This document shows, in pieces, positions 7,758 to 57,619 of a stretch of DNA of 64,000 nucleotides. Origin of the DNA: Gemmatimonadota bacterium (lineage in GTDB: Bacteria; Gemmatimonadota; Gemmatimonadetes; Palauibacterales; Palauibacteraceae). The notes beneath the pieces were generated by a model that ran no database searches, had not been told where the DNA came from, and was given only the letters and a program-made list of their open reading frames with translations. The position numbers were made by a program, and so were the translations under genes. Location: NCBI GenBank assembly GCA_965116475.1, contig OZ220691.1, forward strand, positions 2,400,001 to 2,464,000. The letters are read 5' to 3'. Within the stretch, counting starts at the first letter, position 1. Every line of letters starts with the position of its first letter.

Positions 7758-7798
7758 CCGCAAGTTGTTCGGCCGCCGTTCCGGCCCCATCTTGTGCG

Positions 7799-7839
7799 GC
7801 CGGACGGCGGCCTCCGCAGGGTGCCGCCGTCCGGCTTTT
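7799..7839 (+). terminator. Rho-independent terminator after the DoxX gene
   Basis: 13-bp stem gccggacggcggc / gccgccgtccggc followed by TTTT. Confidence 0.75.
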
Positions 7840-7901
7840 GCCACGGGCTGCCAGTGCATCTCCCCGGCATAATCCCCTACGACGGAGCGGACCCGCGACC
7901 C

Positions 7902-14315: not shown

Positions 14316-14534
14316 CTAGCGCCTCTCCGCCCAGGGCTTGGGGCCGAACACGAACCAGAGCACGCTGCCGACGATGGGACAGAGGAAGATCACCGCGACC
14401 CACAGCACCTTCTCTCGCCTCGGCGCCGTGGAAAGCGCGGTGAGGCCGCTCGCCCAGAGGTTCAGGACCGCAAGGAGGGCCAGGAGCACGAGGCGCGGGT
14501 CCAGCCCCGCCGCCCAGTCCAGCGCCGCGTTCAT
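14316..14534 (-). CDS. Small membrane protein, PLDc N-terminal domain type
   Basis: EKVLWVAVIFLCPIVGSVLWFVFGP; overlaps the ABC gene stop by 4 nt. Confidence 0.85.
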   Translation of the reverse strand: MNAALDWAAGLDPRLVLLALLAVLNLWASGLTALSTAPRREKVLWVAVIFLCPIVGSVLWFVFGPKPWAERR

Positions 14535-16423
14535 GCGGCGGCCGTCGGCTTCTGGAACTGGAGGCGGTGGAGCTGCGCGTAGAGGCCGCCGCTCTCGAGC
14601 AGCGTGTCGTGCGTGCCGGACTCGCTGATGCGTCCGTGGTGGAGCACGAGGATGCGGTCGGCCCCCTGGATGGTGGAGAGCCGGTGGGCGATGACGAGGC
14701 TCGTCCGTCCCTCCATCAGGCGCTCCAGCGCTGCCTGGATCTCCGCCTCGATCTCCGAGTCCACCGAACTCGTCGCCTCGTCGAGCAGCAGGATGGGCGG
14801 GTCCCCCGCGAGCGCGCGGGCGAAGGACACCAGCTGGCGCTCACCGACCGACAGGTTCCCGCCCCGCTCGCTAAGCGGCTCGTCGTACTTCTTCGGCAGC
14901 CGCGCAAGGTGCCGGTCGACCCCGACCTGACGGGCCGCCTCGCGGATCTCGTCCCGTCCCACCGCCCCGCGGTCGAGCGCGATGTTGTCCGCGGCGGAGC
15001 CCGAGAAGAGGTAGACGTCCTGCAGCACGAGGCCCATCCGGTGGCGGAGGTCGGCGAGCCGGAGGTCCCGGATGTCGACCCCGTCGAGCGTGATGCGCCC
15101 GCGCTGCGGCTCGTAGAAGCGCATGAGGAGGCTGAACAGCGTCGTCTTGCCCGCGCCGGTCGCTCCGACGACCGCGAGCCGCTGACCCGGCTCCGCCGTG
15201 AAGCTGATGCCGCGCAGCACCCAGCCGTCGTCCGGCGCGTCCTCGTCGAGCCGCCCCTCCGCCCCTTCCCAGGCCGCGGCGTGGGCCAGGGCGGGCGTCG
15301 TGACCCCCGCCGCGTCCTCCTCCGGCGACAGGTACCGGAACCAGACATCCTCGAACTCGATGCGGCCCTTCACGCGCGCCGGAAGATCCGTCGGATCCTT
15401 GGGGTCCTCGATCCCCGGCGCTTCGTCCAGGAGCCGGAAGATCCGCTCCGAACTCGCCATCGCGCCCTGCAGGATGTTGTACTTCTCCGACAGGTCCTGG
15501 ATGGGGCGGAAGAACCGCCTCGCGTACTGCAGGAAGGCCGCGATGACCCCGATCGTGAGCGTCCCCTCGAGGGCCTGGTTGCCTCCGTACCAGATGATGA
15601 GCGCGAGCGCGACCGACGCGAGCACCTCGACGACGGGAAAGAAGAGCGCGTAGTACGTGATCGAGCGCAGGTGGGCCTCGAGGTGGTCATCGTTGATCTC
15701 GCCGAACCAGCGCGTCGCCGCCCGCTCCTGCCGGAACAACTGCACGACGCGCACCCCCGTGATCCGCTCCTGCAGGAAGGCGTTGATGCGCGCGAGCCGG
15801 ATCCTGATGTCGCGGTACGCCTCGCGCACCTTCTTCCGGAAGAGCCACGCGGCCAGGAACACGAGGGGGAGGACCGCGAACGTCACGAGGGCGAGCCGCC
15901 AGTCCATGACGAGCATGGCGATCATGATGAAGGCGACCGTGAACACGTCCCCGAAGATCGTCACCACGCCGGAGGTGAACATCTCGTTCAGGACCTCGAC
16001 ATCGCTCGTGAGCCGCGTCATCAGGCGTCCGACCGGGTTGCGGTCGAAGTACGCGAGCCGCAGGCGCTGCAGGTGCCGGAAGATCTCCTGCCTCAGGTCG
16101 ACCATCACGTTCTGCCCGATCCACGTGGTCAGGATCGTGCGCCCGTACTCCAGCAGTCCGGAGAGGAGGAGCGAGACGAAGAAGAGGATCGCGAGGGTGC
16201 GGATGGCGCCGAAGTCGCCATCCGGGATCGCGTGGTCGATGACCTCCATCGTCAGCCACGGGCCGATGAGCGCGAGGCCCGAGGCGGCCACGAGCATCAG
16301 CACGGCGAGCGCGACCCGGCCCCGGTACGGTCTCAGGTAGGCGAGCAGACGCTTCATGAGACGGGCGTCGTACGCCTTTCCGAGCGCTTCTTCTTCCTGG
16401 AGGGGACCGTCCGGCGCTTGCAT
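14531..16423 (-). CDS. ABC transporter permease/ATP-binding fusion (MsbA/MdlB-like exporter)
   Basis: N-terminal TMD, GATGAGKTT, LSVGERQL, LLLDEATS, IAHRLSTI. Confidence 0.95.
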   Translation of the reverse strand: MQAPDGPLQEEEALGKAYDARLMKRLLAYLRPYRGRVALAVLMLVAASGLALIGPWLTMEVIDHAIPDGDFGAIRTLAILFFVSLLLSGLLEYGRTILTTWIGQNVMVDLRQEIFRHLQRLRLAYFDRNPVGRLMTRLTSDVEVLNEMFTSGVVTIFGDVFTVAFIMIAMLVMDWRLALVTFAVLPLVFLAAWLFRKKVREAYRDIRIRLARINAFLQERITGVRVVQLFRQERAATRWFGEINDDHLEAHLRSITYYALFFPVVEVLASVALALIIWYGGNQALEGTLTIGVIAAFLQYARRFFRPIQDLSEKYNILQGAMASSERIFRLLDEAPGIEDPKDPTDLPARVKGRIEFEDVWFRYLSPEEDAAGVTTPALAHAAAWEGAEGRLDEDAPDDGWVLRGISFTAEPGQRLAVVGATGAGKTTLFSLLMRFYEPQRGRITLDGVDIRDLRLADLRHRMGLVLQDVYLFSGSAADNIALDRGAVGRDEIREAARQVGVDRHLARLPKKYDEPLSERGGNLSVGERQLVSFARALAGDPPILLLDEATSSVDSEIEAEIQAALERLMEGRTSLVIAHRLSTIQGADRILVLHHGRISESGTHDTLLESGGLYAQLHRLQFQKPTAAA

Positions 16424-16498
16424 GCCCCATAGTACGAACTCGCCGCGCCCGGTCCAATCAGGTTGGCGCGCCCCGTCGCCGCCGGCCATCATGCTTCC

Positions 16499-19453
16499 AT
16501 GAGCGACCGGATCCGGGTCCGAGGCGCCCGGCAGCACAACCTCAAGGGCATCGATGTCGACATCGAGCGCGGGGCCCTCACCGTCCTCACGGGGCCTTCC
16601 GGCTCGGGAAAGTCCAGCCTCGCCTTCGACACGATCTACGCCGAGGGACAGCGGCGGTACATCGAGTCGCTGTCCACCTACGCCAAGCAGTTCCTCGAGC
16701 GCATGCCGAAGCCCGCCGTCGATCTCGTCGAGGGCGTGAGCCCGTCCGTCGCGATCGACCAGAGCAACCGCGTGCAGTCGAGCCGCTCCACCGTCGGCAC
16801 GATCACGGAGGTCTACGACTACCTGAGGCTCCTGTGGGCGCGGGTGGGGACGACCGTGTGTCCGGAGTGCGGGCGTGCCGTCGTGCCGGACACCGTGACG
16901 TCGGCCACCGACGCGCTGCTCGGTGCCGGCGCCGATGCCGGCCCCGAGGCGCGGCTCGCCATCGCCTTCCCCGTCCCCCCCGAGGAGCGCATGGACGGCG
17001 CGAGGGTGGTGCAGAACCTCCGGGCGCGGGGGTACGTCCGCCTCCTCGCCGACGGCCGCGAACTCTACCTGCCGGACATCGATCCGGACATCGATCCGGA
17101 CATCGATCCGGAGGCGGAGGAGGAGAAGGGCGGAGGGGACGACCTGCGCGCGTTGGCGGACGCGGGCGAAGCGCTCGTGATCGTGGACAGGGTCGCCTGC
17201 CGCGCCGAGGATCGCGAACGGATCGCGGATTCGCTCGCCGGCGCCTTCGCCGAGGGAAGAGGCGCCGCCGTCGCGCTCATCTGGCGACGCGGCGCCTCCA
17301 CCCCCGAGCGCCGCGACTTCGAAGAGGCCCATCGCTGCGGGGTCTGCGGCTCCGCGTTTCCGCGGCCCACCCCCCAGTTGTTCAGCTTCAACAGCCCCGC
17401 CGGAGCCTGCGACACCTGCACGGGCTTCGGCGCCGTGCTGGAGTACTCCCCCCAACTCATCGTTCCCGACCCGGCCCGTTCGCTGGACGAGGGGGCCCTC
17501 GATCCGTGGTCGAAGCCCCGCTACCGGCGCGAGCGCACGCGCCTGAGAGCGTTCGCCGCCGCTGCCGGGCTCGACGCGACCCTCCCGTGGGAGGCCCTCC
17601 CCCAGGAAGGCCGCGACGTCCTGTTGCACGGAGGGAGGTACGCGGAGGAACGCTTCCGGGGCGTGATTCCATTCCTCCGCTCGAAGGAGAAAAAGCGGTA
17701 CAAGGCATACATCCGCGTCTTTCTGCGCCAGTATCAGCTTCCCGAGCGGTGTTCCGGCTGCGACGGCCACCGCCTGAAGCCGGAAGCACTGAATGTGCGC
17801 GTCGGGGGGCGGCACATCGCCGAAGTCGCCCGCTGGACGGTGAAGGAGATCTCCGCCTGGCTCGCGGGCGGACTCGATCTCTCCGCCTTTCAGCGTGAGG
17901 TCGCGTCGACCATCCTCCGCGAACTCGAGCATCGGACCTCGTTTCTCGCGGAAGTCGGACTCGGGTACCTGACGCTGGACCGCCAGGCGCGGTCCCTCTC
18001 CGGGGGCGAGATGCAGAGAATTCGCCTCGCCAGCTGTCTCGGGAGCCGACTGGTCAGCACGCTCTACGTCCTCGACGAACCCACGATCGGCCTTCACCCG
18101 CACGACATCGACGCCTTCACCGGCGTCCTCGAGCGGCTCGCGAGCCGCGGGAATACCGTGCTCGTCGTCGAGCACGAGCCCGCGGTGCTGGAACGGGCCG
18201 ACCGCATCGTGGAACTCGGTCCCCGGGCCGGGGAGCAGGGCGGTGAGGTCGTGTTCGAGGGCGGCTGGAGCGACCTCCTCGCGGCGGAGACCGGCACCGG
18301 CCAGGCCCTCGCGCGACGGGCGGCCGCCGCCGGGCAGGGCGGCGCACGGCAGGGCGGTGCGTGGCAGGGCGGCCAACAGTCGGGTGGCGGCTCCCGACTC
18401 GCCCTGCGCGGCGCCCGCCTGCACAACGTACGGGGCGTGGACGTGGCGGTTCCGCTGGGGTCGCTCACGCTGGTCACCGGCGTCTCCGGCTCCGGCAAGT
18501 CGACGCTCATCCGCGGCGTGCTGTACCACGCCCTCGAGCGGGAGATCACGGACCGGTCCTCCGCCAAGCCGCACCTGGGCGAGCCCGCCGGCTCCTGGGA
18601 CCGGCTCGAAGGCGCGGAGCTCCTCGAGGACGTCGTGCTCGTCGACCAGCGGCCGATCGGCCGCACCCCGCGCTCGAACCCCGCGACCTACATCGGGGCC
18701 TTCACCCCGCTGAGGAACGCCTACGCCGCCCTCCCGGAAGCCCGCTCCCGCGGATACGAGCCGGGATATTTCTCCTTCAACCGTCCGGGCGGACGCTGCG
18801 AGCACTGCAAGGGCGCGGGGGAGGAGACGGTGGAGATGGTCTTCCTGGCCGACGTCTCCGTGCCCTGCGAGGCGTGCGGGGGCTCGCGCTACCGTCCGGA
18901 GGTGCTGGAGATCGGGATCCGCGGCCGCTCGATCCGCGACGCCCTCGACATGACCGTGGACGAGGCGATCCGCTTCTTCATCCGGCACGACCGCCTCGGC
19001 GCCCGGCTGTGGCAACTGCAGCGGGTGGGTCTCGGATACCTGCGGCTCGGCCAGCCGGCCACCACGCTCTCCGGCGGCGAGGCGCAGCGCCTCAAGATCG
19101 CCCGGGAACTCGCGCGCCGGGGAGGCGCGGGCCGCAGGCTGTACATCCTCGATGAGCCCACGGTGGGTCTCGGCGTGGCGGAAGTCGGCACGCTCGTCGC
19201 GGTGCTGCGCGAACTCGTGAAGGAAGGGCACGCCGTCGTCGTCGTCGAACACAACCTCGACGTGGTCGCGGAAGCCGACTGGGTCATCGACATGGGGCCC
19301 GGGCCCGCGGAGGACGGCGGCCGCATCGTGGCGGCGGGCCCGCCCACCGTCATCGCCGAGTCCGAAGCCTCGCTCACGGGCGCCTTCCTCCGCGCCCGGG
19401 CGGAGCGGCTGGCCGTCGATGGGGCGGTCGCCGCCGGCGCGGAATCGGCGTGA
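16499..19453 (+). CDS. uvrA: Excinuclease ABC subunit UvrA
   Basis: [31 protein letters not shown], zinc-finger CxxC motifs, two LSGGE signatures. Confidence 0.95.
17072..17112 (+). repeat. In-frame 12-bp tandem repeat (PDID x3) in uvrA
   Basis: ccggacatcgat x3 plus ccgga. Confidence 0.9.
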
Positions 19454-20508
19454 CCCAGGCCGGCGCGCCACGCGTCTCCATCCTTCTGCCGTGCCGGGAC
19501 GCCGAGCCGTTCCTGGGCGCGTGCATCGAGAGCCTCGCCGCCCAGTCCGAGCCGCGTTTCGAGGTGCTCGCGCTCGACGACGGTTCGGTGGACGGCACCG
19601 GGCCGCTGCTGCGGACGTGGGCGGCACGCGACTCCCGCGTCCGCCTCGTCGACCGCGACGGCTCGGGCATCGTCGCGGCGCTGCGCCGGTTGTCGGGCGG
19701 GGCGCGGTCGCCCCTCCTCGCCCGCATGGATGCCGACGACATCGCGCACCCCGGCCGCTTGGCCGCGCAACTCCGCCTCCTCGCCCGATGCCCCGGCATC
19801 GCCGCGTGTGGCACGGGCGTCCGCTACTTCCCGCGGCCCCGGCCCGGCTCGGGGTACCTCCGCTACGAAGGCTGGATCAACGAGCTCACCGAGCCCGCCG
19901 CCGTCGAGCGGGACCTGTTCGTCGAGTGTCCGATCGCCCACCCCACGCTGATGGTGCGGCGCGACGCCTTCGAGGCGGTCGGCGGCTATCGCGACGCCGG
20001 GGGACCGGAGGACTACGACCTCATCCTGCGGCTGTCCGCGGCGGGCCATCTCATGACGAACGTGCCGCGGATCCTCCACGAGTGGCGCCTGGGCCCGCAC
20101 CGGCTGTCCGAGCGGTCGGACCGCTACAGCCCCGACGCGTTCCGGCGCCTCAAGATCGCGCACCTCGCGAACGGCGGCATTCCGGCGGACCGGCCGCTCG
20201 TGATCTGGGGCGCCGGCAAGGTCGGCAAGGCCTTCGCGCGCGGCTGGCTTGAACGCGGGCTCGAACAGGGGGGCTCCGCGACTCGCGCCCGCCCGCTGGA
20301 GGCGTTCGTGGATCTGGACCCCCGCAAGATCGGGCAGAACATCCACGGCGCCGTCGTCCTCCGCCCCGAGGATCTCCCGGCGTTCGCCGCGCCCGCCCGC
20401 CCCTACATGCTCCTCGCGGTGGGCACCCCCGGCGCCCGCCGGGAGATCCGGGAGGCGCTGCAGGCCCTCGGGTTCCGGGAGATCGAGGACTACCGCGCCG
20501 TGGCCTAG
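19450..20508 (+). CDS. Glycosyltransferase family 2
   Basis: VSILLPCRD, DDGSVDGT, RMDADD, PEDYDL; C-terminal Rossmann-like WGAGKVG. Confidence 0.92.
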   Translation: MTQAGAPRVSILLPCRDAEPFLGACIESLAAQSEPRFEVLALDDGSVDGTGPLLRTWAARDSRVRLVDRDGSGIVAALRRLSGGARSPLLARMDADDIAHPGRLAAQLRLLARCPGIAACGTGVRYFPRPRPGSGYLRYEGWINELTEPAAVERDLFVECPIAHPTLMVRRDAFEAVGGYRDAGGPEDYDLILRLSAAGHLMTNVPRILHEWRLGPHRLSERSDRYSPDAFRRLKIAHLANGGIPADRPLVIWGAGKVGKAFARGWLERGLEQGGSATRARPLEAFVDLDPRKIGQNIHGAVVLRPEDLPAFAAPARPYMLLAVGTPGARREIREALQALGFREIEDYRAVA

Positions 20509-36146: not shown

Positions 36147-37357
36147 ATGATCAACGTTCTTGCGGGCTCGGAAAACGACGCCGCGCTCATCGCGCAAGCC
36201 GTCGGCAACGCCGCACAGGTCGTGGCGGATGCGGCTCAGTTCACGAACGGCGATGGCCCCGTGGAGTGCCTGATTCTCGGTTGCCGCCATCCCATCCCGG
36301 CGGAGACGATCGAACTCCTGCGGGACATCGAACGGAAGAGGCTGTGGATGCCCCTCATCCTCGTCACGGATCGCGTGCCCGAGGCCGCGCGCCGGCTGAG
36401 CGACGATAAAGCGCCCCTTGCGCTTCAGTTCGGTTCGATTGCCGGAGCCGCAAGGGGCCCGTCGGGGACCGTCTTCGTGCTTGATGCCCAAGCGTCGGAA
36501 CTTCGGGCGTTCACGAGCGGGACGGGCGTGGCAAGTTTCGCGGTCGACACCTTCCAGGTGCTGGGTGGAGCGGGCCTGGGGCCTGGCGAATTCCAGTCGC
36601 CGAGGGCGTTGGCGCTCGGTGCGAACGGTACCGTGGCCGTGTTCGAGTCCATGGGCAGTGTGCACCAGTTCACGAACCGGGCAGGCGTGCTCGAGCACGA
36701 TGGCACCATTCAGCTCCGGATCGATGTCGACGATGCGTGTATTCTGGGTTCGGAACTCGTCGTCGCCGGCAGGGACCTCCAGCGGCCCGGGTCGATACAC
36801 GTATTCACCCTGGAGGGAGAGTGGCTGCGGTCTTTCGGCCACTTCTACGATACGGACAATCACCGCGTGTCGGCCGTGCTCCACCGTTCCAAGGTGGCTT
36901 GCCTGGAAGCATCGCGGCAGATTGTCGTGGCGCCGTGTTTCTGCCGGAACTCAGGAAGTACGATGCACACGGCCGATTGCTCTGGTGGTCCGCCTTGGAC
37001 GGCCTGTCGCCGGTGTACCTGGAGGAGATGCCCAATGGGGCCATTGCGACCGGCACGCCGGAGGACGGATACCACGGGACGGTGGCGGTGCAGGCCGACG
37101 AGAACCTCAACGCGGTGATACTCCAGGTGGCTTTCGTAACGCGGGAACGCCGGCGGAAGGGTGAGGCTCCCGATATTTTGACCTATGTGTTCAAACTGGA
37201 CGAGGGTCACGGTACGCTATTCGAGGGCGATGTCGATACCGTCCGGGATTTGTTTCCCGACGGTGCTCTGTTGTCGGCCCGACTTCCGTTCCCGACCCTG
37301 CGGATGGTTTCGTGGGCCGAGGGCGTGAGTCGGAGAGTCGCCGGGGGTGCGCCGTGA
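36147..37357 (+). pseudogene. Chimeric ORF: receiver-like N-terminus fused to a 6-bladed beta-propeller, frameshift at about 36935
   Basis: CLILG...PLILVT (receiver-like), then GTVFVLDAQ, GGAGLGPGEFQSPR (NHL-like); frames join at VVAP|VFLPELRKYD. Confidence 0.65.
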
Positions 37358-38817
37358 CGCCTGCTGCCTTCATGTCAACGAACCTTATGCGCTCGCGCGC
37401 TCACGGGGTAACGTGGCGCAGGATGTTCATTGCGTTCGCGCTGAGCGTCGCGTGGCCGTCGGGGGCGGCGGGTCAAGAACCGGGACGGGTGATGGGCGTG
37501 GTCCGCGCCGAGGACACCGGCGCGCCCGTGGAGGGGGCTGCGGTACGGCTGGCGGGAGCCGACGTCGTGGTGGCGGAAACCGTCACGGGCTTGGGCGGCG
37601 CCTTTGCCTTCGACGGGATCGCGCCGGGCGAGTATGTGCTCGGCGTGCGGCGCATCGGGTTCGCCGCGTACAGCGTGCCACTGGAGGTGGGGCCTGACGG
37701 GACGGCCCCGCTAGATGTGCGGCTGTCGCTGGACCCGGTTGAGATGGCGCCGCTGGAGGTGGACGTCGAGGGCCGACCGCTCCGCCTGGTCGAGACCGGT
37801 TTCTACGACCGGCTGGAGGAGGGCTGGGGCACGTACTTCGAGCCGGAGTGGATCAGGACCCGAAGCGTGGGAGTCGCACGACTGGCGCACTTCGTGTCGA
37901 ACCTGCAGATGCGGGCCCCCCTGTCCCGGTGTCCCACGGTGCAGGTCTGGTACGACCGGAGACTCATCGGGACAGTCGCTGGCTGGGGAACCAGCCAGCC
38001 GGCGTCGATCAATCCCGGCGGGACGCACCGGTCCGCCGGGGAGTCGCCCGCGCAACTGCTGGACGAACTGTCCGTGACGGATCTGGGCGCCGCTGAACTG
38101 TACCCGACTTCGTCTCCCATCCCGCTCTTTGCGCTCAACACTCACACGGTTCGCTGCGGGGCCATCATCCTGTGGTCCGACTGGATGGCGCAGATAGGGG
38201 GAGAGGTTCCGCAGATCGAAGTGAAGCTCTGCGAGCCGACTGGCGGTTCCGGCGCAGTGACGCTGGACGGGACCATCGAAGACCGGCTCACCGAGGTGCG
38301 GCTGCCGGCGGCCCGCATCCGGGCGTCGTTCGCGCCGGAGGGCGAGGTTGATCCGCCCGAACTCCGCGAGATCGAGGTGCGGTCCGACTCGACCGGCCGC
38401 TTCCGGCTCTGCGACCTCCCGTCGGGAACCGACGTCACGCTCGCGCCCTCGTACGGTCCCCATCCGGGCGAGGTCGCTGTGCTCCGTGCCGAATCCGGTG
38501 AAGCGGCCCGTCTGGTCGTCCCCGTCACGATGCCGGGATCGGTTGCCGGACGGGTCGTGAACGGGAACACGGGGCGGGGGTTCCCGGCCGTCCCCGTCAT
38601 GCTGGTCGGCACAGATGTGCGGGCCGTGACCGATGGTGCAGGCCGCTTCACGATGGAGGACCTGCCCCCGGGCTCGTACCAGGTGCGGGCCGACTGCGGG
38701 GGCTTCGAGTCGCCAACGCCGCGGGTTGCCGTCTCGGAGGCAGGACAGGCCCGGGTCCTCCTCGTCCTCGAGCCCGAAGACCGCTCCGGCCGCGATCTAC
38801 GCCGCTGCGACAACTGA
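37354..38817 (+). CDS. Secreted carboxypeptidase-regulatory-like domain protein (copy 1)
   Basis: Signal peptide ending AAG-Q, G-Y-L-VRRIGF, GFYDRLEEGWG, CGAIILWS, TDGAGRFTMEDLPPGSY; start uncertain. Confidence 0.85.
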   Translation: MTPAAFMSTNLMRSRAHGVTWRRMFIAFALSVAWPSGAAGQEPGRVMGVVRAEDTGAPVEGAAVRLAGADVVVAETVTGLGGAFAFDGIAPGEYVLGVRRIGFAAYSVPLEVGPDGTAPLDVRLSLDPVEMAPLEVDVEGRPLRLVETGFYDRLEEGWGTYFEPEWIRTRSVGVARLAHFVSNLQMRAPLSRCPTVQVWYDRRLIGTVAGWGTSQPASINPGGTHRSAGESPAQLLDELSVTDLGAAELYPTSSPIPLFALNTHTVRCGAIILWSDWMAQIGGEVPQIEVKLCEPTGGSGAVTLDGTIEDRLTEVRLPAARIRASFAPEGEVDPPELREIEVRSDSTGRFRLCDLPSGTDVTLAPSYGPHPGEVAVLRAESGEAARLVVPVTMPGSVAGRVVNGNTGRGFPAVPVMLVGTDVRAVTDGAGRFTMEDLPPGSYQVRADCGGFESPTPRVAVSEAGQARVLLVLEPEDRSGRDLRRCDN

Positions 38818-39317: not shown

Positions 39318-40811
39318 GTGGATTCGTCACGCGAGGCCGTCCTGATCGAGCGGACGGTCGGTGCCGTGGCGACGAGTCTCGCAAGGTCGTGCGCTCGCGG
39401 CGTGACGCGGCGCCTGGTGCTCGTGGCGCTCGCGCTGGGCGTCGCGTGGCCGATGGTGGCGGCGGGGCAGGAGCCGGGACGGGTGATGGGCGTGGTCCGC
39501 GCCGAGGACACCGGCGCGCCCGTCGAGGGGGCTGCGGTACGGCTGGCCGGAGGGGACGTCGTGGTGGCGGAAACCGTCACGGGCCTGAGCGGCGCCTTCT
39601 CCTTCGACGGAATCGCGCCGGGCGAGTATGTGCTCGGCGTGCGGCGCATCGGGTTCGCCGCCTACAGCGTGCCGCTGGAGGTGGGGCCCGACCGGCCGGG
39701 CCCGCTCGATGTGCGGCTGTTGCTGGACCCGGTCGAAGTGGCGCCGCTGGAGGTGGACGTCGAGGGTCGGCCGCTCCGCCTCGTCGAGACAGGCTTCTAC
39801 GACCGGCTGGAGGAAGGCTGGGGCACGTACTTCGAGCCCGAGTGGGTCCGAACCCGAAGCGTCGGCTTCACCCGGTTGTCGCACTTCGTGTCGAGCCTGC
39901 AGATGCGGGCCCCCCAGTCCCGCTGTCCCTCTGTACCGGTCTACTACGACCGGGAACTCATCGGCGAAGCCGATGGCTGGGGAACCAGTCGGCCGCGGTC
40001 GCTCAATCCGGCCGGCACGCAACGATCCGCCGTGGAGCCGCCCGCGCAATTCATGGACGAACTGTCCGTGGCGGATCTGGGTGCCGCCGAGGTCTATCCG
40101 ACTTCGTCTCCCATCCCGCTCTTCGCATTCAACGATACCACGATCAGCTGCGGGGCCATCATTCTGTGGTCCGACTGGATGGCGCAGATAGGGGGAGAGG
40201 TTCCGCAGATCGACGTGAAGCTCTGCGAGCCGACTGGCGGTTCCGGCGCAGTGACGCTGGACGGGACGGTCGAAGACCGGCTCACGGAGGTGCGGCTGCC
40301 GGCGGCCCGCATCCGGGCGTCGTTCGCGCCGGCCGACCAGGAGGGGCCGCGCGAACTCCCCGAGATCGAAGTGCGGTCCGACTCGACGGGCCGCTTCCGG
40401 CTCTGCGACCTTCCGTCGGGAACTGGCGTCACACTGGCGCCCTCCTACGGCCCCCATCCGGGCGAGGTCGCCACGCTCCGCGCCGAACCCGGCGCCGCGG
40501 CGCGTCTGATCGTCCCCGTCACCATGCCGGGCTCGGTCGTCGGGCGGGTCGTCAACGGGAACACGGGGCGGGGGTTCCCGGTCGTACCGATCGTTCTGAT
40601 CGGCACTGATGTCCGGGCCGTGACCGATGGTGCCGGCCGCTTCACGATGGAGGATCTGCCCCCGGGCTCGTACCAGGTGCGGGCCGACTGCGGGGGCTTC
40701 GAGTCGCCAACGCCGCGGGTCGTCGTCTCGGAGGCAGGGCAGGCCCGCGTCCTCCTCGTCCTCGAGCCCGAAGACCGCTCCGGCCGCGACCTGCGCCGCT
40801 GCGACAACTGA
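39318..40811 (+). CDS. Secreted carboxypeptidase-regulatory-like domain protein (copy 2)
   Basis: Close paralog of 37354-38817 with the same C-terminus RDLRRCDN; start uncertain. Confidence 0.85.
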   Translation: MDSSREAVLIERTVGAVATSLARSCARGVTRRLVLVALALGVAWPMVAAGQEPGRVMGVVRAEDTGAPVEGAAVRLAGGDVVVAETVTGLSGAFSFDGIAPGEYVLGVRRIGFAAYSVPLEVGPDRPGPLDVRLLLDPVEVAPLEVDVEGRPLRLVETGFYDRLEEGWGTYFEPEWVRTRSVGFTRLSHFVSSLQMRAPQSRCPSVPVYYDRELIGEADGWGTSRPRSLNPAGTQRSAVEPPAQFMDELSVADLGAAEVYPTSSPIPLFAFNDTTISCGAIILWSDWMAQIGGEVPQIDVKLCEPTGGSGAVTLDGTVEDRLTEVRLPAARIRASFAPADQEGPRELPEIEVRSDSTGRFRLCDLPSGTGVTLAPSYGPHPGEVATLRAEPGAAARLIVPVTMPGSVVGRVVNGNTGRGFPVVPIVLIGTDVRAVTDGAGRFTMEDLPPGSYQVRADCGGFESPTPRVVVSEAGQARVLLVLEPEDRSGRDLRRCDN

Positions 40812-47494: not shown

Positions 47495-48559
47495 TCAGCT
47501 CAGGAAAGCGCGCAGTTCGTCGAAGCTGGAAGTAGGTCCGAGCACCACGAGATCATCGCCGGCCCGCAGCTTCTCCTGCGGCCCCGGGTTGTAGACGAAA
47601 CTCTCGGCGTCGCCGCCCCCTCCGCTTCCGCGCTGGATCGCGACGACGAGCAGGCCGGTCCGGGCCTGGATCTTCGCCTCGGCCAGGGTGAGTCCGGCGA
47701 CCTCGGACGACTCCCGCACGGATACCTGCTCCAGGAGAAGCCCCGTGCCGCCGGCGTCGCCGGGGGTGTCGAAGTCGACGAAGAGCGTGAGGTCCGGCCG
47801 CAGGACGAGCGAGGCCATCTGGATGCCGCCCGTCGAGTTGGGGGTCACGACGCGGTCGGCGCCGGCTTTCTTGAGCTTGCTGACCGCGTCCTCGGAACGC
47901 CCCCGCCCGACGATCGTGAGATCCGGGTTCAGCTCGCGTGCCGCCAGGCACACGAACGCGTTGTCGGTGTCCGCGCTCAGCGAGGCGATGAGCCCGCGTG
48001 CCCGCTGGATCCCCGCTGCCACGAGTGTGTCGTCATCGGTCGCATCCCCCTCGACGACCAGCGCGTCGGGGTCGATCCGGCGTACCTCCTCGATCTGCGC
48101 GGGGTCGCGTTCGACGGCGACGTACGGGGTCCCGCGCGTGACGAGCCTGTTCAGCGCGGCGAGGCCGGTGCGGCCCGCCCCGCACAGGATCACGTGGTCG
48201 CTGCGGCGGTCGATCCTCTTCATCGTTCTTCGTCTCTTGAAGGACTGGGTCAGGTTCATCTCGAGGAGGGTGGCGGTGATGAGGGCGAACCAGATCGCGA
48301 GCGTGATGATGCCGCCCGCGATCATGAAACTCGCGAAGATGCGGCCGCCATCCGTGAGCGTCCGGATTTCGCCGTACCCGACCGCCGAGACCGTGATCAC
48401 GGTCATGAAAAAGGCGTCGGACACGTCGTATTGGGGCATGAGGGCGAAGCCGGTCGTCCCGATGACCGTGAGGCTCACCGTGAAAAGGACGGCCCCGAAG
48501 AGGCGGCCTTCGAACCGGGTGAAGTCGAACAGGCGCCGCGCGAGGCCCCTCCGTCTCAT
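47495..48559 (-). CDS. Potassium channel protein with TrkA-N/TrkA-C domains
   Basis: Pore TVSAVGYGE, ILCGAGRTG, GDATDD, C-terminal RCK-C. Confidence 0.93.
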   Translation of the reverse strand: MRRRGLARRLFDFTRFEGRLFGAVLFTVSLTVIGTTGFALMPQYDVSDAFFMTVITVSAVGYGEIRTLTDGGRIFASFMIAGGIITLAIWFALITATLLEMNLTQSFKRRRTMKRIDRRSDHVILCGAGRTGLAALNRLVTRGTPYVAVERDPAQIEEVRRIDPDALVVEGDATDDDTLVAAGIQRARGLIASLSADTDNAFVCLAARELNPDLTIVGRGRSEDAVSKLKKAGADRVVTPNSTGGIQMASLVLRPDLTLFVDFDTPGDAGGTGLLLEQVSVRESSEVAGLTLAEAKIQARTGLLVVAIQRGSGGGGDAESFVYNPGPQEKLRAGDDLVVLGPTSSFDELRAFLS

Positions 48560-50187
48560 CGCGCCCCGCGGTCCAGGCGCGCGACGACCTGGCGCCCCTT
48601 GATCCGGCTGCCGTCGAGGCCGCGGACCACCGCGTCGGCCGCCAGCGAATCGACGTCGACGAGGGTGAAGTTCTGCCGGATGTCGATGCGGCCGATCTGT
48701 CCGCCCGCAACGGAGGTTTCGCCGGTGATCGCGCCGACGAGGTCGCCGGGGCCCGCGCCGTCGCGCTTGCCGACGCCGACGAAAACCTTGGTCCAGGTGG
48801 GGCGGGTGGCGCGCCGGGCGCTCCGGTCGGGCGGTGCGGCCGCGGTGTCGCCGGGCGGTGCATCGCCGGGTGCTGCGTCGCCGGGTGCCGTCTCTCGCGC
48901 TCCGGTGGCCGGGGCGGGCCGGTCCGCCGTGCGGAGGAGTCCGGCGAGGGCGGCGGCCACGCGCGCGGCGCCGTGCTCCTGGATGAGAGGGGCGAGGAGG
49001 AGCGCGCCGGCCGCGAGATCCTGCTGCTCGAGCGCGGCGGCGACGCGGGTCCGGAAGGCGGCCACGTCGTCCATGAGCGCGGGGTCGGCGGGTTCGGCCA
49101 GGGGGGCGGCCCCCATCCCGGCCCGCAAGGCCGTCAGCTCGAACTGCCGCTCGTGCAGGGAGTCCACGACGGCGTAGCAGCGCTCGGCGCCGGCCGCCGC
49201 CCGGGCGAGGGGCTCCGGTGCCGCCGGCAGCTCGAACGCGACCGCATGGGCGGCGGGCTCGACCTCGCCCCACGCCCCGACCCGCACCGCTACGCCGCCG
49301 CCGGTTTCGCGCGCGGCGCTGTCGGTCTCAGCCGCGGCGTCGTCTGTCTCGGCCACGCCGCCGTCGGTTTCGCCCGCGCCGGCTTCCTCGGCCCCGGCGA
49401 CATCGAGCCCGGCCAGCGAGAGCGCGGTGCGCACATCGGAGACGGCGTCGGGGGCCGTCTCGACGCTGACGGCGGCTGCCGCGCCGGCCCGCGTGAGGTC
49501 GCGGAGCAACTCGGCGAGGCGCGCCAGCCGGCCCTCGCGCGTCGCCCGGCTCGCGACGGCGACCGGAGTGCCCGCCGCGCCGCCCGCCTCCGGCCCTCCG
49601 GCCCGCGGCTCGGCGAACAGGTCGTTCGGCCACCGGCGCGCGCGCGGCAGCCAGCGCTCGATCAGCTCGTCGAACGCCGCATCCCGGGCGTGGGTCGTCG
49701 CGATCCGACGTGCCCCGTCGCCCGAGGCCTGCACCACGGCCTCGACGGCGGCCCGCGCCGGCTCGAGCGCACGCACGTCATCGAGGACCAGGGTGCACAG
49801 CGCCGCGGCCGGGATGTCGCCCCTTCGCACGCCCTCCAGCAGGTCGGCCGGCGGCCCGACCAGGATCGGCGCCCGCGCCACCGCCCCGCCCGCGGCGCCC
49901 GGCACGACGACGACCTCATGCCCCGCGGCGCGGGCGGCGGCATGCATGCGCGCCGCGCAGCGCCGCGCGCGGTCCGCCGTCGCGGTAAGCACGAAGGCGC
50001 GGCCGCCTGCCTCGCCGGCGGCAAGGTCGCGCACGGCGGCGGCCGCGTAGAGCGCGGCCAGGCCCCCTCCCTCCGCGGCAATGAGCGCGATGTGGCGGCG
50101 GCGCTCGACCGCGCCCGAGAGCGTGTCGAGGGCTTCGGGCAACGGCGGCGGCGTTCCCGCCGCGGGCTCCGACTGGTCCTGGTTCAA
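48556..50187 (-). CDS. Degenerate DEAD-box-like protein with DbpA RNA-binding domain
   Basis: C-terminal [34 protein letters not shown]; helicase motifs eroded; start uncertain. Confidence 0.8.
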
Positions 50188-50345
50188 GTGCGGGATCCCG
50201 GAAAACGAATTGGACAATTGGACAAAGTCGTGCGCGGGCCTTCGCCCAGCGGTGGGGAAGGTACGCACGCCGTCCGTCCGTCCAAAGTGGACCCGCCCTC
50301 CGGGAGTGGACCCGGCCGCCCGGCCCCCACGCAGCTCATGTCACG

Positions 50346-50446: not shown

Positions 50447-51799
50447 GTGACAGCAATTTCCACCATCGGAACGCTGGAGGCGATTCAGGCCGGGGTGTGG
50501 GGCGTCCCCCTCATCATCCTCCTCCTCACCACCGGCCTCGTCTACACGCTGCTGCTGCGCGGCCTCCAGTTCCGCCGCCTGCCGCAAGCCCTCTGGCTGG
50601 CGCTCGTCAAGCGCCGCGAACCGGAGGGCGAGGGCGACATCTCGCACTTCCAGGCGCTCATGACCGCGCTGGCCGCCACGGTCGGCACGGGGAACATCGT
50701 GGGCGTCGCGACGGCCATCGGCGCGGGCGGCCCGGGGGCGCTCTTCTGGATGTGGGTGACGGGACTCCTCGGGATGGCGACGAAGTACGCGGAAGCGGTA
50801 CTCGGCGTCCGCTACCGGGAGACGGACTCGCGGGGCGAGAAGGCGGGCGGTCCCATGTACTATCTCGAGCACGGCCTCGGCCGGGGCGGGCTCGGCCGAG
50901 GCCTGGCGATCGCCTTCGCGCTCTTCGCGACGCTCGCCGCTTTCGGCATCGGCAACGGCGTCCAGTCTCAGGCGGTGGCGGACGCGATGAACGAGTCGTT
51001 TCACCTGCCGCACTGGATCACGGGACTCGTCACGGCGGCCGCCGTCGGGCTCGTCATCATCGGCGGGATCCGGTCCATCGGGCGCGTGGCGAGTGTCATC
51101 GTGCCGGCGATGATCATCCTCTACATGGGCGTCGCCGGCGTCGTCCTCATCTCCAATGCGGCGGCGATCCCCGCGGCCTTCCGGCTCGTGTTCGAGCATG
51201 CGTTTGGGGGGCGGGCAGCGGCCGGCGGGGTCCTCGGCTACACCGTCCTCCAGGCGATGCGTTTCGGCGTCGCGCGCGGGATCTTCTCGAACGAATCGGG
51301 ACTGGGCACCGGGGCGATCGCCGCCGCCGCGGCGCAGACGCGCGAGCCGGTGCGGCAGGCGCTCGTCTCCATGACGCAGACGTTCATCGACACCATCGTC
51401 GTCTGCACCTTCACGGGGCTCGCGATTCTGACCACGGGGGCGTGGAAATCGGGGGCCGAGGGCGCGAACATGACGCAACTGGCCTTCGACACGAGCCTCC
51501 TCGCGGGCGCGGGGGACATCGTCGTCGCGCTCGGCCTCGCGACCTTCGCCTTCAGCACGATGCTCGGGTGGTCCTACTACGGAGAACGGAGCTTCGCCTA
51601 CCTCTTCGGCGAACGCGTGATCCGTCCCTATCGGCTGGTGTTCGTGCTCGTGGTCGGGCTCGCCGCGGTCGTGGAACTCGATGTCGTGTGGCTCATCTCC
51701 GACATCCTCAACGGCCTCATGGCCGCGCCGAACCTGGTGGGACTCCTCCTCCTCTCCGGCCTCGTGCGGCGAGAGACACGGAGCTACTTCAGCCGCTAG
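50447..51799 (+). CDS. Alanine/glycine:cation symporter (AGCS family)
   Basis: [48 protein letters not shown]; start uncertain. Confidence 0.95.
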
Positions 51800-51814
51800 C
51801 GTCGTGTACGGACG

Positions 51815-52090
51815 CTAGCCGCGGAAGGGCGGGTAGTGGCCGAGGTCGTAGGCGCGGATCGAGAGGACGCCGTGCGACCCGATCCCCACGTCGGCGAGGG
51901 TGCGCGTCTCGTCGCGGATGCGGCGCTCGGCGAACTCGGTGTAGAAGTCGCCGGGGTTGTCCGAGGAGCGCTGGAGCATCGCGCGGATGCCGAAGGCCTT
52001 GGCGTCGGCGACGGTCGTGTCGTCGGGCAGTTCGGCGACGTGCTCGAGCCAGCGGTCGGGCATGATGAGGCGAACCGTGATGGCGTTCAT
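51815..52090 (-). CDS. Ubiquitin-like (beta-grasp) small protein
   Basis: TTVADAK...FAERRIRDETRTLADVGI resembles ubiquitin DTIENVK...[17 protein letters not shown]; ends FRG. Confidence 0.7.
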   Translation of the reverse strand: MNAITVRLIMPDRWLEHVAELPDDTTVADAKAFGIRAMLQRSSDNPGDFYTEFAERRIRDETRTLADVGIGSHGVLSIRAYDLGHYPPFRG

Positions 52091-52353
52091 GCGTGGACGT
52101 TGCGGAGGGTGTAGAGGAAACGCTTCGCGAGGTCGGTCACGTCGAGGCCCACGACGCGGTCGGTCTCGACGCGGACGTTCGTGTGGCCGCCCGCCCGGTC
52201 GACCGCAAAGCGGGCCAGGCCGATCTCGCCGGCGAAGGTGACCGATGCGTCGGTCTCCTCGTGAACCCGAAGCCTGGAGTGCTCGCCGAAGAAGCTCTTC
52301 GCGCGGTCGAGCACATCTTCCGGGGACAGGTCGGTGATCGTGACGTATCGCAT
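52087..52353 (-). CDS. Hypothetical 88-aa protein
   Basis: MRYVTITDLSPEDVLDRAKSFF...; GC3-biased codons; ATGA overlap with the ubiquitin-like gene. Confidence 0.8.
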   Translation of the reverse strand: MRYVTITDLSPEDVLDRAKSFFGEHSRLRVHEETDASVTFAGEIGLARFAVDRAGGHTNVRVETDRVVGLDVTDLAKRFLYTLRNVHA

Positions 52354-52519
52354 GTCGATTCCGGTTCGGCGATCGCAGCCCGGGGCCCGCGGCGCCGAAG
52401 CCGGGGCCCTCGTTGGGGCCGCAAAATCTTGCCGCCCCGGCGGCGCGTCAACCGGACCGCGGGAGGACCGCGAGCAAACAATTCGCCACAGGCGGCTGGG
52501 GGCGATACCATCTCCCGCC

Positions 52520-55630: not shown

Positions 55631-56453
55631 CGAAGCGGGGGCCCGAGCGGTTGAAGTAGGAGGAGGCGTCGACGACCCAGGCGCGGCCCTCGGCGACGGC
55701 GCGCGGAGCGACACGTTCAAGTTGCTGCGCATGGGCGTCGGCGTCCGTCCGCGCCGCCTCCAGACCGTAGCCGCACGGCATGAGGAGGAGCGCGTCCGGA
55801 TCGAGGTCTCCGATCTCCTCCCAAGACACCTCGCGGGAAGGCTGCCCCGCCTCGCCCGCCAGGTTCCGGCCGCCGGCGAGTTCGACCATCTCGGGCACCC
55901 AGTGGCCGGGCGCGAACGGCGGATCGAACCACTCGATCCCGAGCACCCCCGGCGGGTCCGCGTCCCCCACGGCCGCCCGCACCGCGTCGAGTCGCCTTCG
56001 GAGCGATCCTCCCGCGTCCCGGGCGACGTGCGGATGGCCGGCGGCCCGCGCCACCTGTGTGAGCGAGGCGAGGATGTCCTCGATCGTATGCGCGTCGAGC
56101 GACACGACCTCCGCATCGATCTCGCGCGCCCCGAGCACCTCCCGCACCCCGCCGGTCGGCACGGCGCACACCTCGCACACGGCCTGCGTGAGAATGATGT
56201 CCGGATCGAGCCCTTCGAGGACGGCGCCGTCGATCTCATACACGCTGCCGTGTTCGATCATGGCCTGCCGCACGGCGGCGTCGATCTCCCCGCTCGAGAG
56301 GCCTTCCGGATCGAAGCGGGGGCGGCTGACGCGGGGACGGTCGAGCAGGTGCGGCGGGTGATCGCACTCGTGCGAGATGCCGACGAGGCTTTCGCCGAGA
56401 CCGAGCGCGTCGACGATCTCCGTCCCGGACGCGAGAAGCGAAACGATCCGCAT
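55536..56453 (-). CDS. Cobalamin/iron-binding protein family (BtuF-like), no signal peptide
   Basis: MRIVSLLASGTEIV, GISHECD, EWFDPPF-PGHWVPEM, YFNRSGPR. Confidence 0.9.
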   Translation of the reverse strand: MRIVSLLASGTEIVDALGLGESLVGISHECDHPPHLLDRPRVSRPRFDPEGLSSGEIDAAVRQAMIEHGSVYEIDGAVLEGLDPDIILTQAVCEVCAVPTGGVREVLGAREIDAEVVSLDAHTIEDILASLTQVARAAGHPHVARDAGGSLRRRLDAVRAAVGDADPPGVLGIEWFDPPFAPGHWVPEMVELAGGRNLAGEAGQPSREVSWEEIGDLDPDALLLMPCGYGLEAARTDADAHAQQLERVAPRAVAEGRAWVVDASSYFNRSGPRFVTGVEILGGLLHPDRLSTPNPAVAAVWSPPA

Positions 56454-57619
56454 CAGTATTGCGGCATCGCGGGGTCGATCTCCTCGGCCCACGCGAGGAT
56501 CCCCCCCGCGAGGTTCACGGCGTTGTCGAATCCGACCGCGCGCAGGTACTCGACGGCGCGATCGCCGCGGGGACCCGAGCGGCAATGGATGATGAGGGGT
56601 TCCGACGCGTCCAGGCTCTCGACGGCCTGCGGGAGCGTGGCGAGCGGCACGAGACGCGCCCCGGCAGCCTCTTCGAGGTTGCAGATCGCCCACTCGTAGT
56701 CCTCTCGCACGTCGATGAGCTGGAAGCGCTCGCCGGCATCGACCCGGCGCTTCAGTTCGTGTACGTCGATGTCGAAGTCATCCATCACACTCTCCGCTTC
56801 CGCCGCGCCGTCCGCAGTCCCACCGCAGAAGCGCTCGTAGTCGATGAGTTCCGTCACCGTCGGCTCGGGGCCGCACACCACGCACTCGGGGTCGGGCGCG
56901 ATGTCCAGCGAACGAAACTCCATGCGGAGCGCGTCGATGAGGAGCAGCCGGCCGGCGAGCGTCTCGCCGATCCCCGCCAGCCACTTGATCGCCTCGTTCG
57001 CCTGGATCGACCCCACGATCCCGGGCAGGACGCCGAGCACCCCGGCTTCCGCGCAATTCGGCACGAGATCCGGAGGCGGAGGATCGCGAAACAGGCAGCG
57101 ATAGCAGGGACCATCCGGCGCCGCGAACACCGCCGCCTGGCCCTCGAAGCGGAGGATGGCCCCGTACGCGAAGGGCGTCCCGAGCATCACGCAGGCGTCG
57201 TTCACGAGATAGCGGGTCGGGAAGTTGTCGCTCCCGTCGATGACGAAATCCCACCCCTCGAGAATCTCGAGCGCATTCCCGGAATCCAGCCGCGTCTCGA
57301 AGGTCTCGACGGCGATGTCCGGGTTCAGCCCCGCGAGCCGCGTCCGGGCCGAGGCGAGCTTCGGCGTCCCGACCGAATCCGTGTCATACAGCACCTGGCG
57401 CTGCAGGTTCGAGAGGTCCACGCGGTCGTGGTCCACGAGCCCGATCCGTCCCACCCCCGCCGCGGCGAGGTAAAGCGCGGCCGGCGAACCCAGCCCGCCC
57501 GCGCCCACGATGAGCACGCTCGAAGCCAGCAGGCGCCGCTGGCCCTCCACCCCCACCTCCGGGATGCTGACGTGACGCCCGTAGCGGACGAGTTCGTCGC
57601 GGGACAGGCCGCCGGTCAT
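56453..57619 (-). CDS. moeB: MoeB/ThiF adenylyltransferase with C-terminal rhodanese domain
   Basis: GAGGLGS, SNLQRQ, DNFPTRY, PCYRC, CAEAGVLG, rhodanese HCRSGPR. Confidence 0.95.
   Translation of the reverse strand: MTGGLSRDELVRYGRHVSIPEVGVEGQRRLLASSVLIVGAGGLGSPAALYLAAAGVGRIGLVDHDRVDLSNLQRQVLYDTDSVGTPKLASARTRLAGLNPDIAVETFETRLDSGNALEILEGWDFVIDGSDNFPTRYLVNDACVMLGTPFAYGAILRFEGQAAVFAAPDGPCYRCLFRDPPPPDLVPNCAEAGVLGVLPGIVGSIQANEAIKWLAGIGETLAGRLLLIDALRMEFRSLDIAPDPECVVCGPEPTVTELIDYERFCGGTADGAAEAESVMDDFDIDVHELKRRVDAGERFQLIDVREDYEWAICNLEEAAGARLVPLATLPQAVESLDASEPLIIHCRSGPRGDRAVEYLRAVGFDNAVNLAGGILAWAEEIDPAMPQY

Follow-up and report, generated by a model that had tools for sequence, protein, structure and literature searches.

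What does a bacterium do with a small ubiquitin-like protein that keeps a glycine at its very end, when no conjugation or sulfur-transfer gene shares its operon? The question is raised by a 91-residue protein (hereafter the Ubl) encoded in a stretch of 64,000 nucleotides from a Gemmatimonadota bacterium (contig OZ220691.1, positions 2,400,001 to 2,464,000; this whole stretch is called the window below). The original prediction, made from the letters alone, had described an uncharacterised bacterial ubiquitin-like protein and had pointed to a MoeB/rhodanese gene nearby. According to our results, the Ubl belongs to a narrow family with an almost invariant terminal glycine, its gene directly follows that of an 88-residue partner in every locus collected, and the pair occupies a fixed place among housekeeping genes.

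The Ubl family and its terminal glycine

The open reading frame (ORF) is real. It starts with ATG, ends YPPFRG followed by a stop codon, contains every peptide that had been quoted from it, and lies on the minus strand, which had been left unstated. Its GC content at third codon positions is 0.98, the highest among 45 crude gene calls in a window of 70.6% GC, and a plus-strand ORF that overlaps it (51836..52114) was therefore read as a shadow frame and rejected as a gene. The same third-position value may mean strong codon bias or high expression.

We then asked how far the end of the protein is conserved. In a large protein database, 322 of 323 candidates were homologues at a threshold of E ≤ 0.01, and the 120 listed in detail share 61-96% identity. 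The terminal glycine is present in 118 of these 120, the two exceptions ending ...FED and ...RPK. Genomic copies were collected by scanning 185,579 species-representative genomes, which gave 101 relatives; 80 loci were kept, many of them ending at contig ends. Glycine followed immediately by a stop codon was found in all 78 scorable copies (77 loci and the window), three loci having been missed by the motif pattern and left out of the scoring. The stop codon varies (TGA in 40 copies, TAG in 36, TAA in 2), which shows that the end of the protein, and not a DNA element, is under selection. Altogether, the glycine is kept in 196 of 198 sequences (118/120 and 78/78), about as strong as residue conservation gets, and the C-terminal glycine singled out originally is thus confirmed. 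Over the 78 genomic copies the tail consensus is A-[Y/F]-D-L-G-H-Y-x-x-F-x-G, with G at −8, H at −7 and G at −1 invariant, F (75 copies) or Y (3 copies) at −3, and E, R, A, M, K or N at −2.

Conservation extends beyond the tail. An alignment of 50 members, referred to below as the core family, has 23 invariant columns, which include M-P-D-R-W-L-E at the turn between the first two strands and I-R-x-x-D-x-G-H ahead of the tail; N-terminal extensions range from 0 to about 35 residues. The Ubl is acidic (median isoelectric point, pI, 4.9), and 119 of the 120 listed members have no cysteine.

Structure prediction had been suggested as a check on the proposed beta-grasp fold. An AlphaFold2 (AF2) model built on a 50-row alignment gave a predicted local distance difference test score (pLDDT) of 78.5 and a predicted template modelling score of 0.71, with strands at residues 3-10 and 15-22, a helix at 27-39, a late strand at 74-77 and a short helix at 80-83; the last ten-residue block has a pLDDT of 51-65. 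When this model was compared with the PDB using Foldseek, the best of the 50 matches listed were ubiquitin and Ubl domains, and nearly all 50 were ubiquitin, Ubl domains, TmoB-type monooxygenase subunits or Ras-binding beta-grasp domains (best E 4.3e-3, query-normalised TM-score, TMq, 0.47-0.61, probability about 1); no match reached E ≤ 0.001. Direct sequence and profile searches with the Ubl against PDB sequences gave nothing significant, the best profile match being the UBL domain of DDI1 homolog 2 (E 1.4).

A significant link came through a sister family of 86-residue ubiquitin-type proteins, found as weaker profile matches (P0252 and P0254-P0260). The core and sister families align with a probability of 98.5% in hhalign (E 3e-15, 76 columns), and the sister profile matches a PDB chain named 'ubiquitin-like protein' (5zmb_A, E 1.8e-5), ubiquitin (E 7e-4 to 1e-3), ISG15, ubiquilin and, weakly, the BilA Ubl, with no ThiS or MoaD chain among the best 60. 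With both families merged into one profile, 5zmb_A (E 0.002) and ubiquitin (E 0.054) were again the leading matches. The sister profile lies nearer to ubiquitin (E 7e-4) than the core profile does. The sister family also lacks four residues ahead of the tail, whereas the divergent relatives P0244-P0246 end in glycine. The Pfam YukD model (PF08817) matches seven of 12 divergent relatives, one of which (P0252, 30.9 bits) passes the gathering score of 27, and neither the window Ubl nor any of the 50 core members. In the ESM Atlas, the neighbours of the Ubl are Gemmatimonadota hypothetical clusters, TmoB and YukD.

We conclude from these comparisons that the Ubl is a ubiquitin-type beta-grasp protein, and not one of the ThiS/MoaD type; the structural evidence is moderate, and the sequence evidence is significant but transitive. 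The reading as an uncharacterised bacterial beta-grasp protein is thus borne out by the model and the sister family. Its supposed eukaryote-style signature stands in part: ubiquitin-type matches are significant through the sister family, but the Pfam ubiquitin model does not match the window Ubl and matches one of 50 members, at E 0.039.

The family is narrow, since a profile search of all 1.84 billion cluster representatives returned only 20 matches at E ≤ 0.001. All 120 listed homologues are named 'hypothetical protein' and come from Gemmatimonadota, Gemmatimonadales or Candidatus Palauibacter. By record title, 74 of the 80 loci belong to metagenome-assembled genomes (MAGs) of the Gemmatimonadota lineage, five to 'uncultured bacterium' and one to 'Akkermansiaceae'. 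The last (L073, contig CAXMRU010000139.1) is a 16-kb locus fully syntenic with the Gemmatimonadota loci, with 51-74% protein identity to window genes, and a binning error probably explains its label. The three named candidate genera (Palauibacter, Carthagonibacter and Benthicola) are all in the order Candidatus Palauibacterales. Two candidate relationships were set aside: a weak Pfam ACAS_N match in 12 of 50 members (best E 0.036) reflects a short acidic/aromatic stretch and was taken as a motif coincidence, and P0248 (5185 residues, E 3e-14) is no relative but a giant protein whose 16 repeats of a nine-residue motif are all that it has in common with the Ubl.

The window Ubl has no match at E ≤ 1 in Pfam or NCBIfam. 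Our literature search found no report joining Gemmatimonadota with a ubiquitin-like protein and none mentioning 5ZMB, and the main text of the Palauibacterales description (PMC10469786) never mentions ubiquitin, thiF, moeB, molybd- or sulfur carrier. The accessible parts of two comparative-genomics surveys of prokaryotic beta-grasp proteins (PMC1779556, PMC1949818) describe no such family. We therefore regard the ubiquitin-type family, with its unusual single-glycine tail, as new, and its obligate partner as new as well; both proteins are unannotated in the libraries searched.

An obligate partner in a conserved chromosomal block

The original prediction overlooked the gene that lies directly upstream of the Ubl gene. 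Its start was placed at an internal ATG, chosen because the N-termini of homologues agree on it, and its stop codon overlaps the Ubl start in the sequence ATGA, which suggests that the two genes are translationally coupled. Elsewhere, 26-136 nt separate the stop codon of the partner from the conserved MPDRW motif of the Ubl. By tblastn, each of the 80 loci has the partner immediately upstream of the Ubl. Its homologues number 141, the named ones all from Gemmatimonadota, and in three MAGs their NCBI locus tags stand next to those of the Ubl. One MAG encodes a 207-residue fusion of partner, linker and Ubl (P0261), which still ends ...FRG at its free end; it was the one match in a fusion search among proteins of 161-2000 residues, which is weak evidence for the absence of other fusions. 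The module has been seen so far in Gemmatimonadota only, and a hidden Markov model (HMM) search for extra sister-family paralogues in the 80 loci and the window returned 81 matches, all of them the Ubl genes themselves.

The partner is 86-88 residues long, has a median pI of 5.9 and contains no cysteine in 118 of the 120 listed sequences. Its AF2 model (pLDDT 89.8) has the topology beta-alpha-beta4-alpha. The best Foldseek match is the regulatory domain of a CIPK (2zfd_B, E 7.9e-4, TMq 0.79, root-mean-square deviation 2.0), followed by lower matches to KA1 domains, BamC-N, Flpp3 and START/SRPBCC helix-grip proteins. The partner has no match in Pfam, NCBIfam, PADLOC or PHROGs, its best PDB-sequence match has an E of 0.97, and its ESM Atlas neighbours are Gemmatimonadota hypothetical clusters alone. 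An H-T-N motif in the partner, which we took to recall the HPN motif of ubiquitin-conjugating (E2) enzymes, raised the idea of a degenerate E2 or ubiquitin E2 variant (UEV); it was rejected, given the rarity of cysteine and a list of 50 Foldseek matches with no E2, UEV or RWD domain.

The pair forms a stand-alone bicistron, divergent from the genes for a class-V aminotransferase and SerA and convergent with that for a Na:alanine symporter. The divergent intergenic region presumably serves as a shared promoter region; its far boundary depends on an aminotransferase start at 52520, which is suggested by the N-termini of the homologues in L023 and L034. On the convergent side, a 15-bp gap is covered by a hairpin that holds both stop codons in its stem, has no U-tract and was equalled in stability by none of 200 shuffles; it is a possible bidirectional terminator. 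Consensus scans for sigma-70 promoters and terminators around the pair found no site, and Rfam had no match in the whole window. Table 1 gives the positions.

Table 1. Features of the partner-Ubl locus in the window (positions count from the first letter of the window)
Feature	Position	Strand	Basis or remark
Ubl gene, 91-residue protein of ubiquitin-type beta-grasp fold	51815..52090	-	ORF, homologues, AF2, Foldseek, hhalign
Ubl tail codons G-H-Y-P-P-F-R-G, residues 84-91	51818..51841	-	Last codon is the invariant Gly; stop at 51815-51817
Partner gene, 88-residue protein, beta-alpha-beta4-alpha, KA1/helix-grip-like, no known family	52087..52353	-	Homologues, tblastn, AF2, Foldseek
ATGA overlap of partner stop and Ubl start	52087..52090	-	Coordinates and sequence
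Divergent intergenic region, 166 bp, between the pair and class-V aminotransferase-SerA	52354..52519	.	Sequence
Hairpin over the gap between convergent Ubl and Na:alanine symporter genes	51787..51827	.	RNA fold −25.1 kcal/mol, z −4.08
MoeB/MoeZ-type E1 adenylyltransferase with rhodanese domain	56453..57619	-	Candidate activating enzyme only; module membership not implied

This arrangement is widely kept. Within 8 kb of the Ubl, the 80 loci contain the aminotransferase (75), a DbpA-like protein (73), SerA (72), the symporter (70), MoeB (62), a TrkA-like protein (57), Rpe (50), a periplasmic binding protein (40) and Kbl (38). Two loci (L002 and L004) are rearranged, with MoeB on the opposite side and the block of partner, Ubl, aminotransferase and SerA intact. 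In L023 and L034 about 2.3 kb separate the aminotransferase from the pair; the inserted genes, on the opposite strand, would encode an O-methyltransferase-like protein and a membrane protein, and the genes past the Ubl appear GNAT-like, as judged from translations read by eye. The DbpA-like protein of the window (48556-50268, minus strand) has 570 residues, with a C-terminal DbpA RNA-binding domain, a weak DeaD dimerisation match and no DEAD or Helicase_C match at E ≤ 1; it may be a degenerate DEAD-box relative.

Across the 80 loci, the rate of change in the Ubl and its partner is about as low as in the housekeeping enzymes on either side. This fixed place bears on the idea of a mobile anti-phage ubiquitination-like system of the Bil, Bub or CBASS-Cap2 type (CBASS, cyclic-oligonucleotide-based antiphage signalling system), or of a toxin-antitoxin pair. 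The module is indeed a small two-gene cassette, and its Ubl ends in a single glycine, as do Bub and Bil Ubls and Cap2 substrates in the accessible parts of PMC11601596 and PMC10097602. However, neither PADLOC nor PHROGs matched, the operon has none of the activating enzyme (E1), E2 and peptidase genes that such systems are described as encoding (PMC11601596, in part), and a pair that keeps one syntenic chromosomal position in 80 loci and diverges in step with its housekeeping neighbours behaves contrary to a mobile island. We consider a defence or toxin-antitoxin function very improbable.

Activation, docking and the MoeB-type neighbour

How could such a tail work? We tentatively favour a reading, held with something short of even confidence, in which the tail is activated by an E1-like enzyme encoded away from the operon, over one in which the Ubl is a non-covalent adaptor. 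In the favoured scenario one transcript would deliver the partner first and the Ubl directly after it. The flexible eight-residue tail G-H-Y-x-x-F-x-G would be the working end, its terminal carboxylate entering a narrow active-site channel to be adenylated, and the product would be either a thiocarboxylate, with the Ubl as a sulfur carrier, or a conjugate. As the subunit that takes up or handles the tail, the partner would follow the logic of MoaD-MoaE and ThiS-ThiG, where a carrier is co-encoded with its acceptor subunit rather than with its E1. In Escherichia coli, too, moaD and moeB are unlinked.

One argument is the end residue itself. Because glycine has no side chain, its near invariance would fit passage through a narrow channel better than a docking contact. 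Where docking motifs at a C-terminus are conserved, those known to us end in hydrophobic or aromatic residues. As far as the sources consulted in part go, a conserved terminal glycine accompanies C-terminal activation in ThiS, MoaD, ubiquitin and the Ubl of phage TAPI (PMC1779556), and beta-grasp families without it (YukD, TmoB and RnfH) are treated as adaptors (PMC1779556, PMC1949818). The same partial record offers a precedent: in CBASS, the E1 domain of Cap2 activates a conserved glycine or alanine at the terminus, behind variable penultimate residues, and Atg8/LC3 is named as a single-glycine Ubl (both PMC10097602).

Several observations weigh in the other direction, and most of them suit an adaptor or assembly factor, in which Ubl and partner would form a heteromer, the tail would be a docking peptide and no glycine chemistry would occur. 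In none of the 80 loci does the operon contain an E1, E2, JAB or other conjugation or sulfur-transfer gene. MoeB apart, Pfam found none among 49 window ORFs, and 40 window ORFs had no match to E2, JAB, ThiS, MoaD, MoaE or ThiG. The nearest relatives, the sister family, end in a basic RRRxPVR with no glycine near its end. The aromatic residues of the tail, Y at −6 and F at −3, are conserved, as they might be in a docking peptide. TmoB and YukD clusters occur among the ESM Atlas neighbours of the Ubl. YukD, the nearest Pfam family, is reported unconjugated, TmoB and RnfH are described as adaptors, and a proteobacterial START-to-RnfH gene pair shares the layout of the module with no transfer system (PMC1779556, and for the adaptors also PMC1949818, both in part). 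The penultimate residue of the Ubl is hardly ever glycine (E in 43, R in 41, K in 9 and G in 3 of the 120 listed), and MoaD is stated to need both glycines of its GG end (PMC4326299, in part). Residues 41-60 of the AF2 model are of low confidence, with no strand assigned there. Finally, the one candidate E1 in the window has, in many relatives, a carrier of its own, as described below. What an adaptor role leaves hard to explain is a side-chain-less residue held in 196 of 198 sequences by docking alone, against the habit of the beta-grasp families covered by those sources. We regard an adaptor as a serious possibility that commands only a little less of our confidence than activation.

The original prediction had linked the tail to a specific enzyme, the MoeB/rhodanese protein, and the gene is indeed where it was placed, on the strand of the Ubl, 4.36 kb off and with no ThiS or MoaD beside it in the window. 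Pfam recognises ThiF (280 bits) and Rhodanese (52.6 bits) in it, and the NCBIfam MoeB model PRK08762, with a cut-off of 449, scores it at 452.9 bits. On that proposal the Ubl would be a ThiS/MoaD-like carrier served by this neighbour, with the proximity being meaningful, a special case of activation. In its favour, MoeB is found no more than 8 kb away in 62 of the 80 loci, combines a ThiF with a rhodanese domain, adjoins no carrier in the window, and belongs with MoeZR-type enzymes that may serve more than one carrier, to judge from the title alone of a work cited in PMC4326299 (its reference 24). However, the whole block is syntenic, and the proximity of MoeB therefore carries no specific information: SerA, the DbpA-like protein and the symporter are as regular or more so, and in L002 and L004 MoeB moves across the pair while partner, Ubl, aminotransferase and SerA stay together.

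A search of the loci for small ORFs ending in GG then revealed a carrier ending ...IVPSIAGG directly upstream of MoeB, on its strand. By HMM and tblastn, this MoaD/SAMP1-like carrier with its ...AGG end is present in 32 of 80 loci; NCBIfam scores it as SAMP1/MoaD-like at 46-51 bits, under the 60-bit cut-off. It is a separate ORF directly upstream of MoeB in 19 loci and in frame with MoeB in the other 13 (L023, L025, L034, L044, L046, L047, L050, L053, L055, L061, L070, L075 and L076), where ...AGG is followed by a linker of 0-25 residues and the MoeB N-terminus; a carrier so fused would need cleavage past the GG to be usable. The window has no such carrier (best tblastn E 0.28), and the adjacency is absent from its near relatives, L001-L020. 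As the carrier stands beside the E1 in relatives, the argument from a MoeB with no adjacent ThiS or MoaD falls. The partner-Ubl pair is present in all carrier-bearing loci too, so the Ubl does not stand in for the carrier, and this lineage provides the E1 with its own conventional cognate substrate. The Ubl itself has no GG end, matches no ThiS/MoaD model and shows no profile similarity to the Gemmatimonadota MoaD-like carrier (hhalign 0.2%). The proposed link between Ubl and MoeB is thus considerably weakened, and we now judge it quite unlikely, although this E1 may have a second substrate. Within the activation scenario favoured here, the MoeZ-type enzyme 4.4 kb off would be one candidate E1, with nothing that links it specifically to the Ubl.

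Other genes of the window, significance and known systems

Some further genes of the window deserve mention. A leucyl-tRNA synthetase is divided between two overlapping ORFs in different frames (7794-8459 and 8297-10393, plus strand), the first with the N-terminal class-I synthetase part and the second with the editing, catalytic and anticodon-binding parts; this appears to be a frameshift, either real or an assembly error. A 1698-residue ORF (14531-19627, minus strand) has ABC-transporter membrane and ATPase domains within its last 600 residues only; the first 1100 have no Pfam match, and the ORF may be over-extended in high-GC DNA. Two neighbouring paralogues of about 500 residues (37312-38817 and 39318-40811, plus strand) carry two CarboxypepD_reg domains each.

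The hosts of the module are abundant bacteria of the sea, sediments and sponges. To our knowledge they have no cultured representative, and the bacterial ubiquitin-type proteins with an exposed terminal glycine that we know of are either GG sulfur carriers, relatives of ThiS and MoaD, or products of mobile anti-phage operons with their own E1 and E2. The present family is in neither group, being of ubiquitin type, with a single glycine, vertically inherited, conserved like the core metabolic genes around it and tied to a partner without known family. If its tail is activated, it would reveal a lineage-wide bacterial housekeeping Ubl pathway, with enzymes and targets yet to be named; if it is not, the family would break the rule of thumb by which a beta-grasp protein with a conserved terminal glycine is taken to be activated. 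A more ambitious form of the activation scenario gives Palauibacterales-type Gemmatimonadota a chromosomally fixed, housekeeping protein-modification system, with the Ubl as a single-glycine ubiquitin-type tag, the cysteine-free KA1-like partner as a new type of non-thiol transfer or targeting factor, and the E1 elsewhere. We think this unlikely, though if true it would give bacteria an equivalent of SAMP or Urm1-type tagging that is unconnected with phage defence. Under either reading, two families of 'hypothetical proteins' now have a fold and a partner assigned, together with a hypothesis that can be tested.

The partner shares its beta-alpha-beta4-alpha topology with KA1 domains (TMq 0.57-0.72 to those of Chk1, MARK1, MARK3 and SAD) and the CIPK regulatory domain, which, in contrast, are eukaryotic and appended to kinases; identity is 8-14%, with no sequence-family match. 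The two-gene layout is also that of the START (RatA/YfjG) and RnfH (YfjF) pair of beta/gamma-proteobacteria, E. coli included, where, in the accessible part of PMC1779556, a helix-grip gene also precedes a beta-grasp gene, a neighbour diverges over a shared intergenic region and conjugation genes are absent. Homology was nevertheless not detected, hhalign giving 0.6% when the Ubl was aligned with YfjF and 0.3% when the partner was aligned with RatA. A START domain is also about twice as large as the partner, and no SmpB gene is near.

Other systems resemble the Ubl in its end. Like the CD-NTases of CBASS that Cap2 modifies, it has an invariant last residue (glycine, or alanine there) behind a variable penultimate one (PMC10097602, in part). 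There, however, Cap2 acts on an enzyme rather than a beta-grasp protein, and the operon includes Cap2 and Cap3, whereas the Ubl locus has no PADLOC match. With ThiS, MoaD and CysO the Ubl shares the beta-grasp fold, a terminal glycine carboxylate as the proposed working end, a small partner co-encoded in place of the E1, and a MoeZ-type E1 in the genome. It differs from them in having GG in only three of 120 listed members and no Pfam or NCBIfam ThiS/MoaD match at E ≤ 1, in a KA1/helix-grip-like partner whose listed Foldseek matches include neither a MoaE nor a ThiG chain, and in coexisting at its loci with a bona fide MoaD-like GG carrier.

Ubiquitin chains are the best structural matches of the Ubl, which shares with ubiquitin and the Bil and Bub proteins a flexible tail ending in glycine, conserved on the Ubl (118/120 and 78/78) as in the Bil, Bub and CBASS systems. 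In contrast, the single glycine of the Ubl follows a variable and often charged residue, its family behaves as housekeeping and syntenic rather than mobile, and the E1, E2 and deubiquitinase that Bil and Bub operons encode (PMC11601596, in part) are not beside it. YukD/EsaB, lastly, is the closest curated sequence family; like the Ubl it is small, bacterial, stand-alone and of beta-grasp fold, and it is found among the ESM Atlas neighbours. The core family is nevertheless distinct from it: all 50 members are without a YukD match, and the type VII secretion context is missing, with no FtsK/EssC, WXG100 or EccD-type Pfam match among the 49 window ORFs, as the original prediction had rightly noted. 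YukD has no conserved terminal glycine and is not conjugated, according to the accessible part of PMC1779556, whereas the glycine-ended tail is the most conserved feature of the Ubl.

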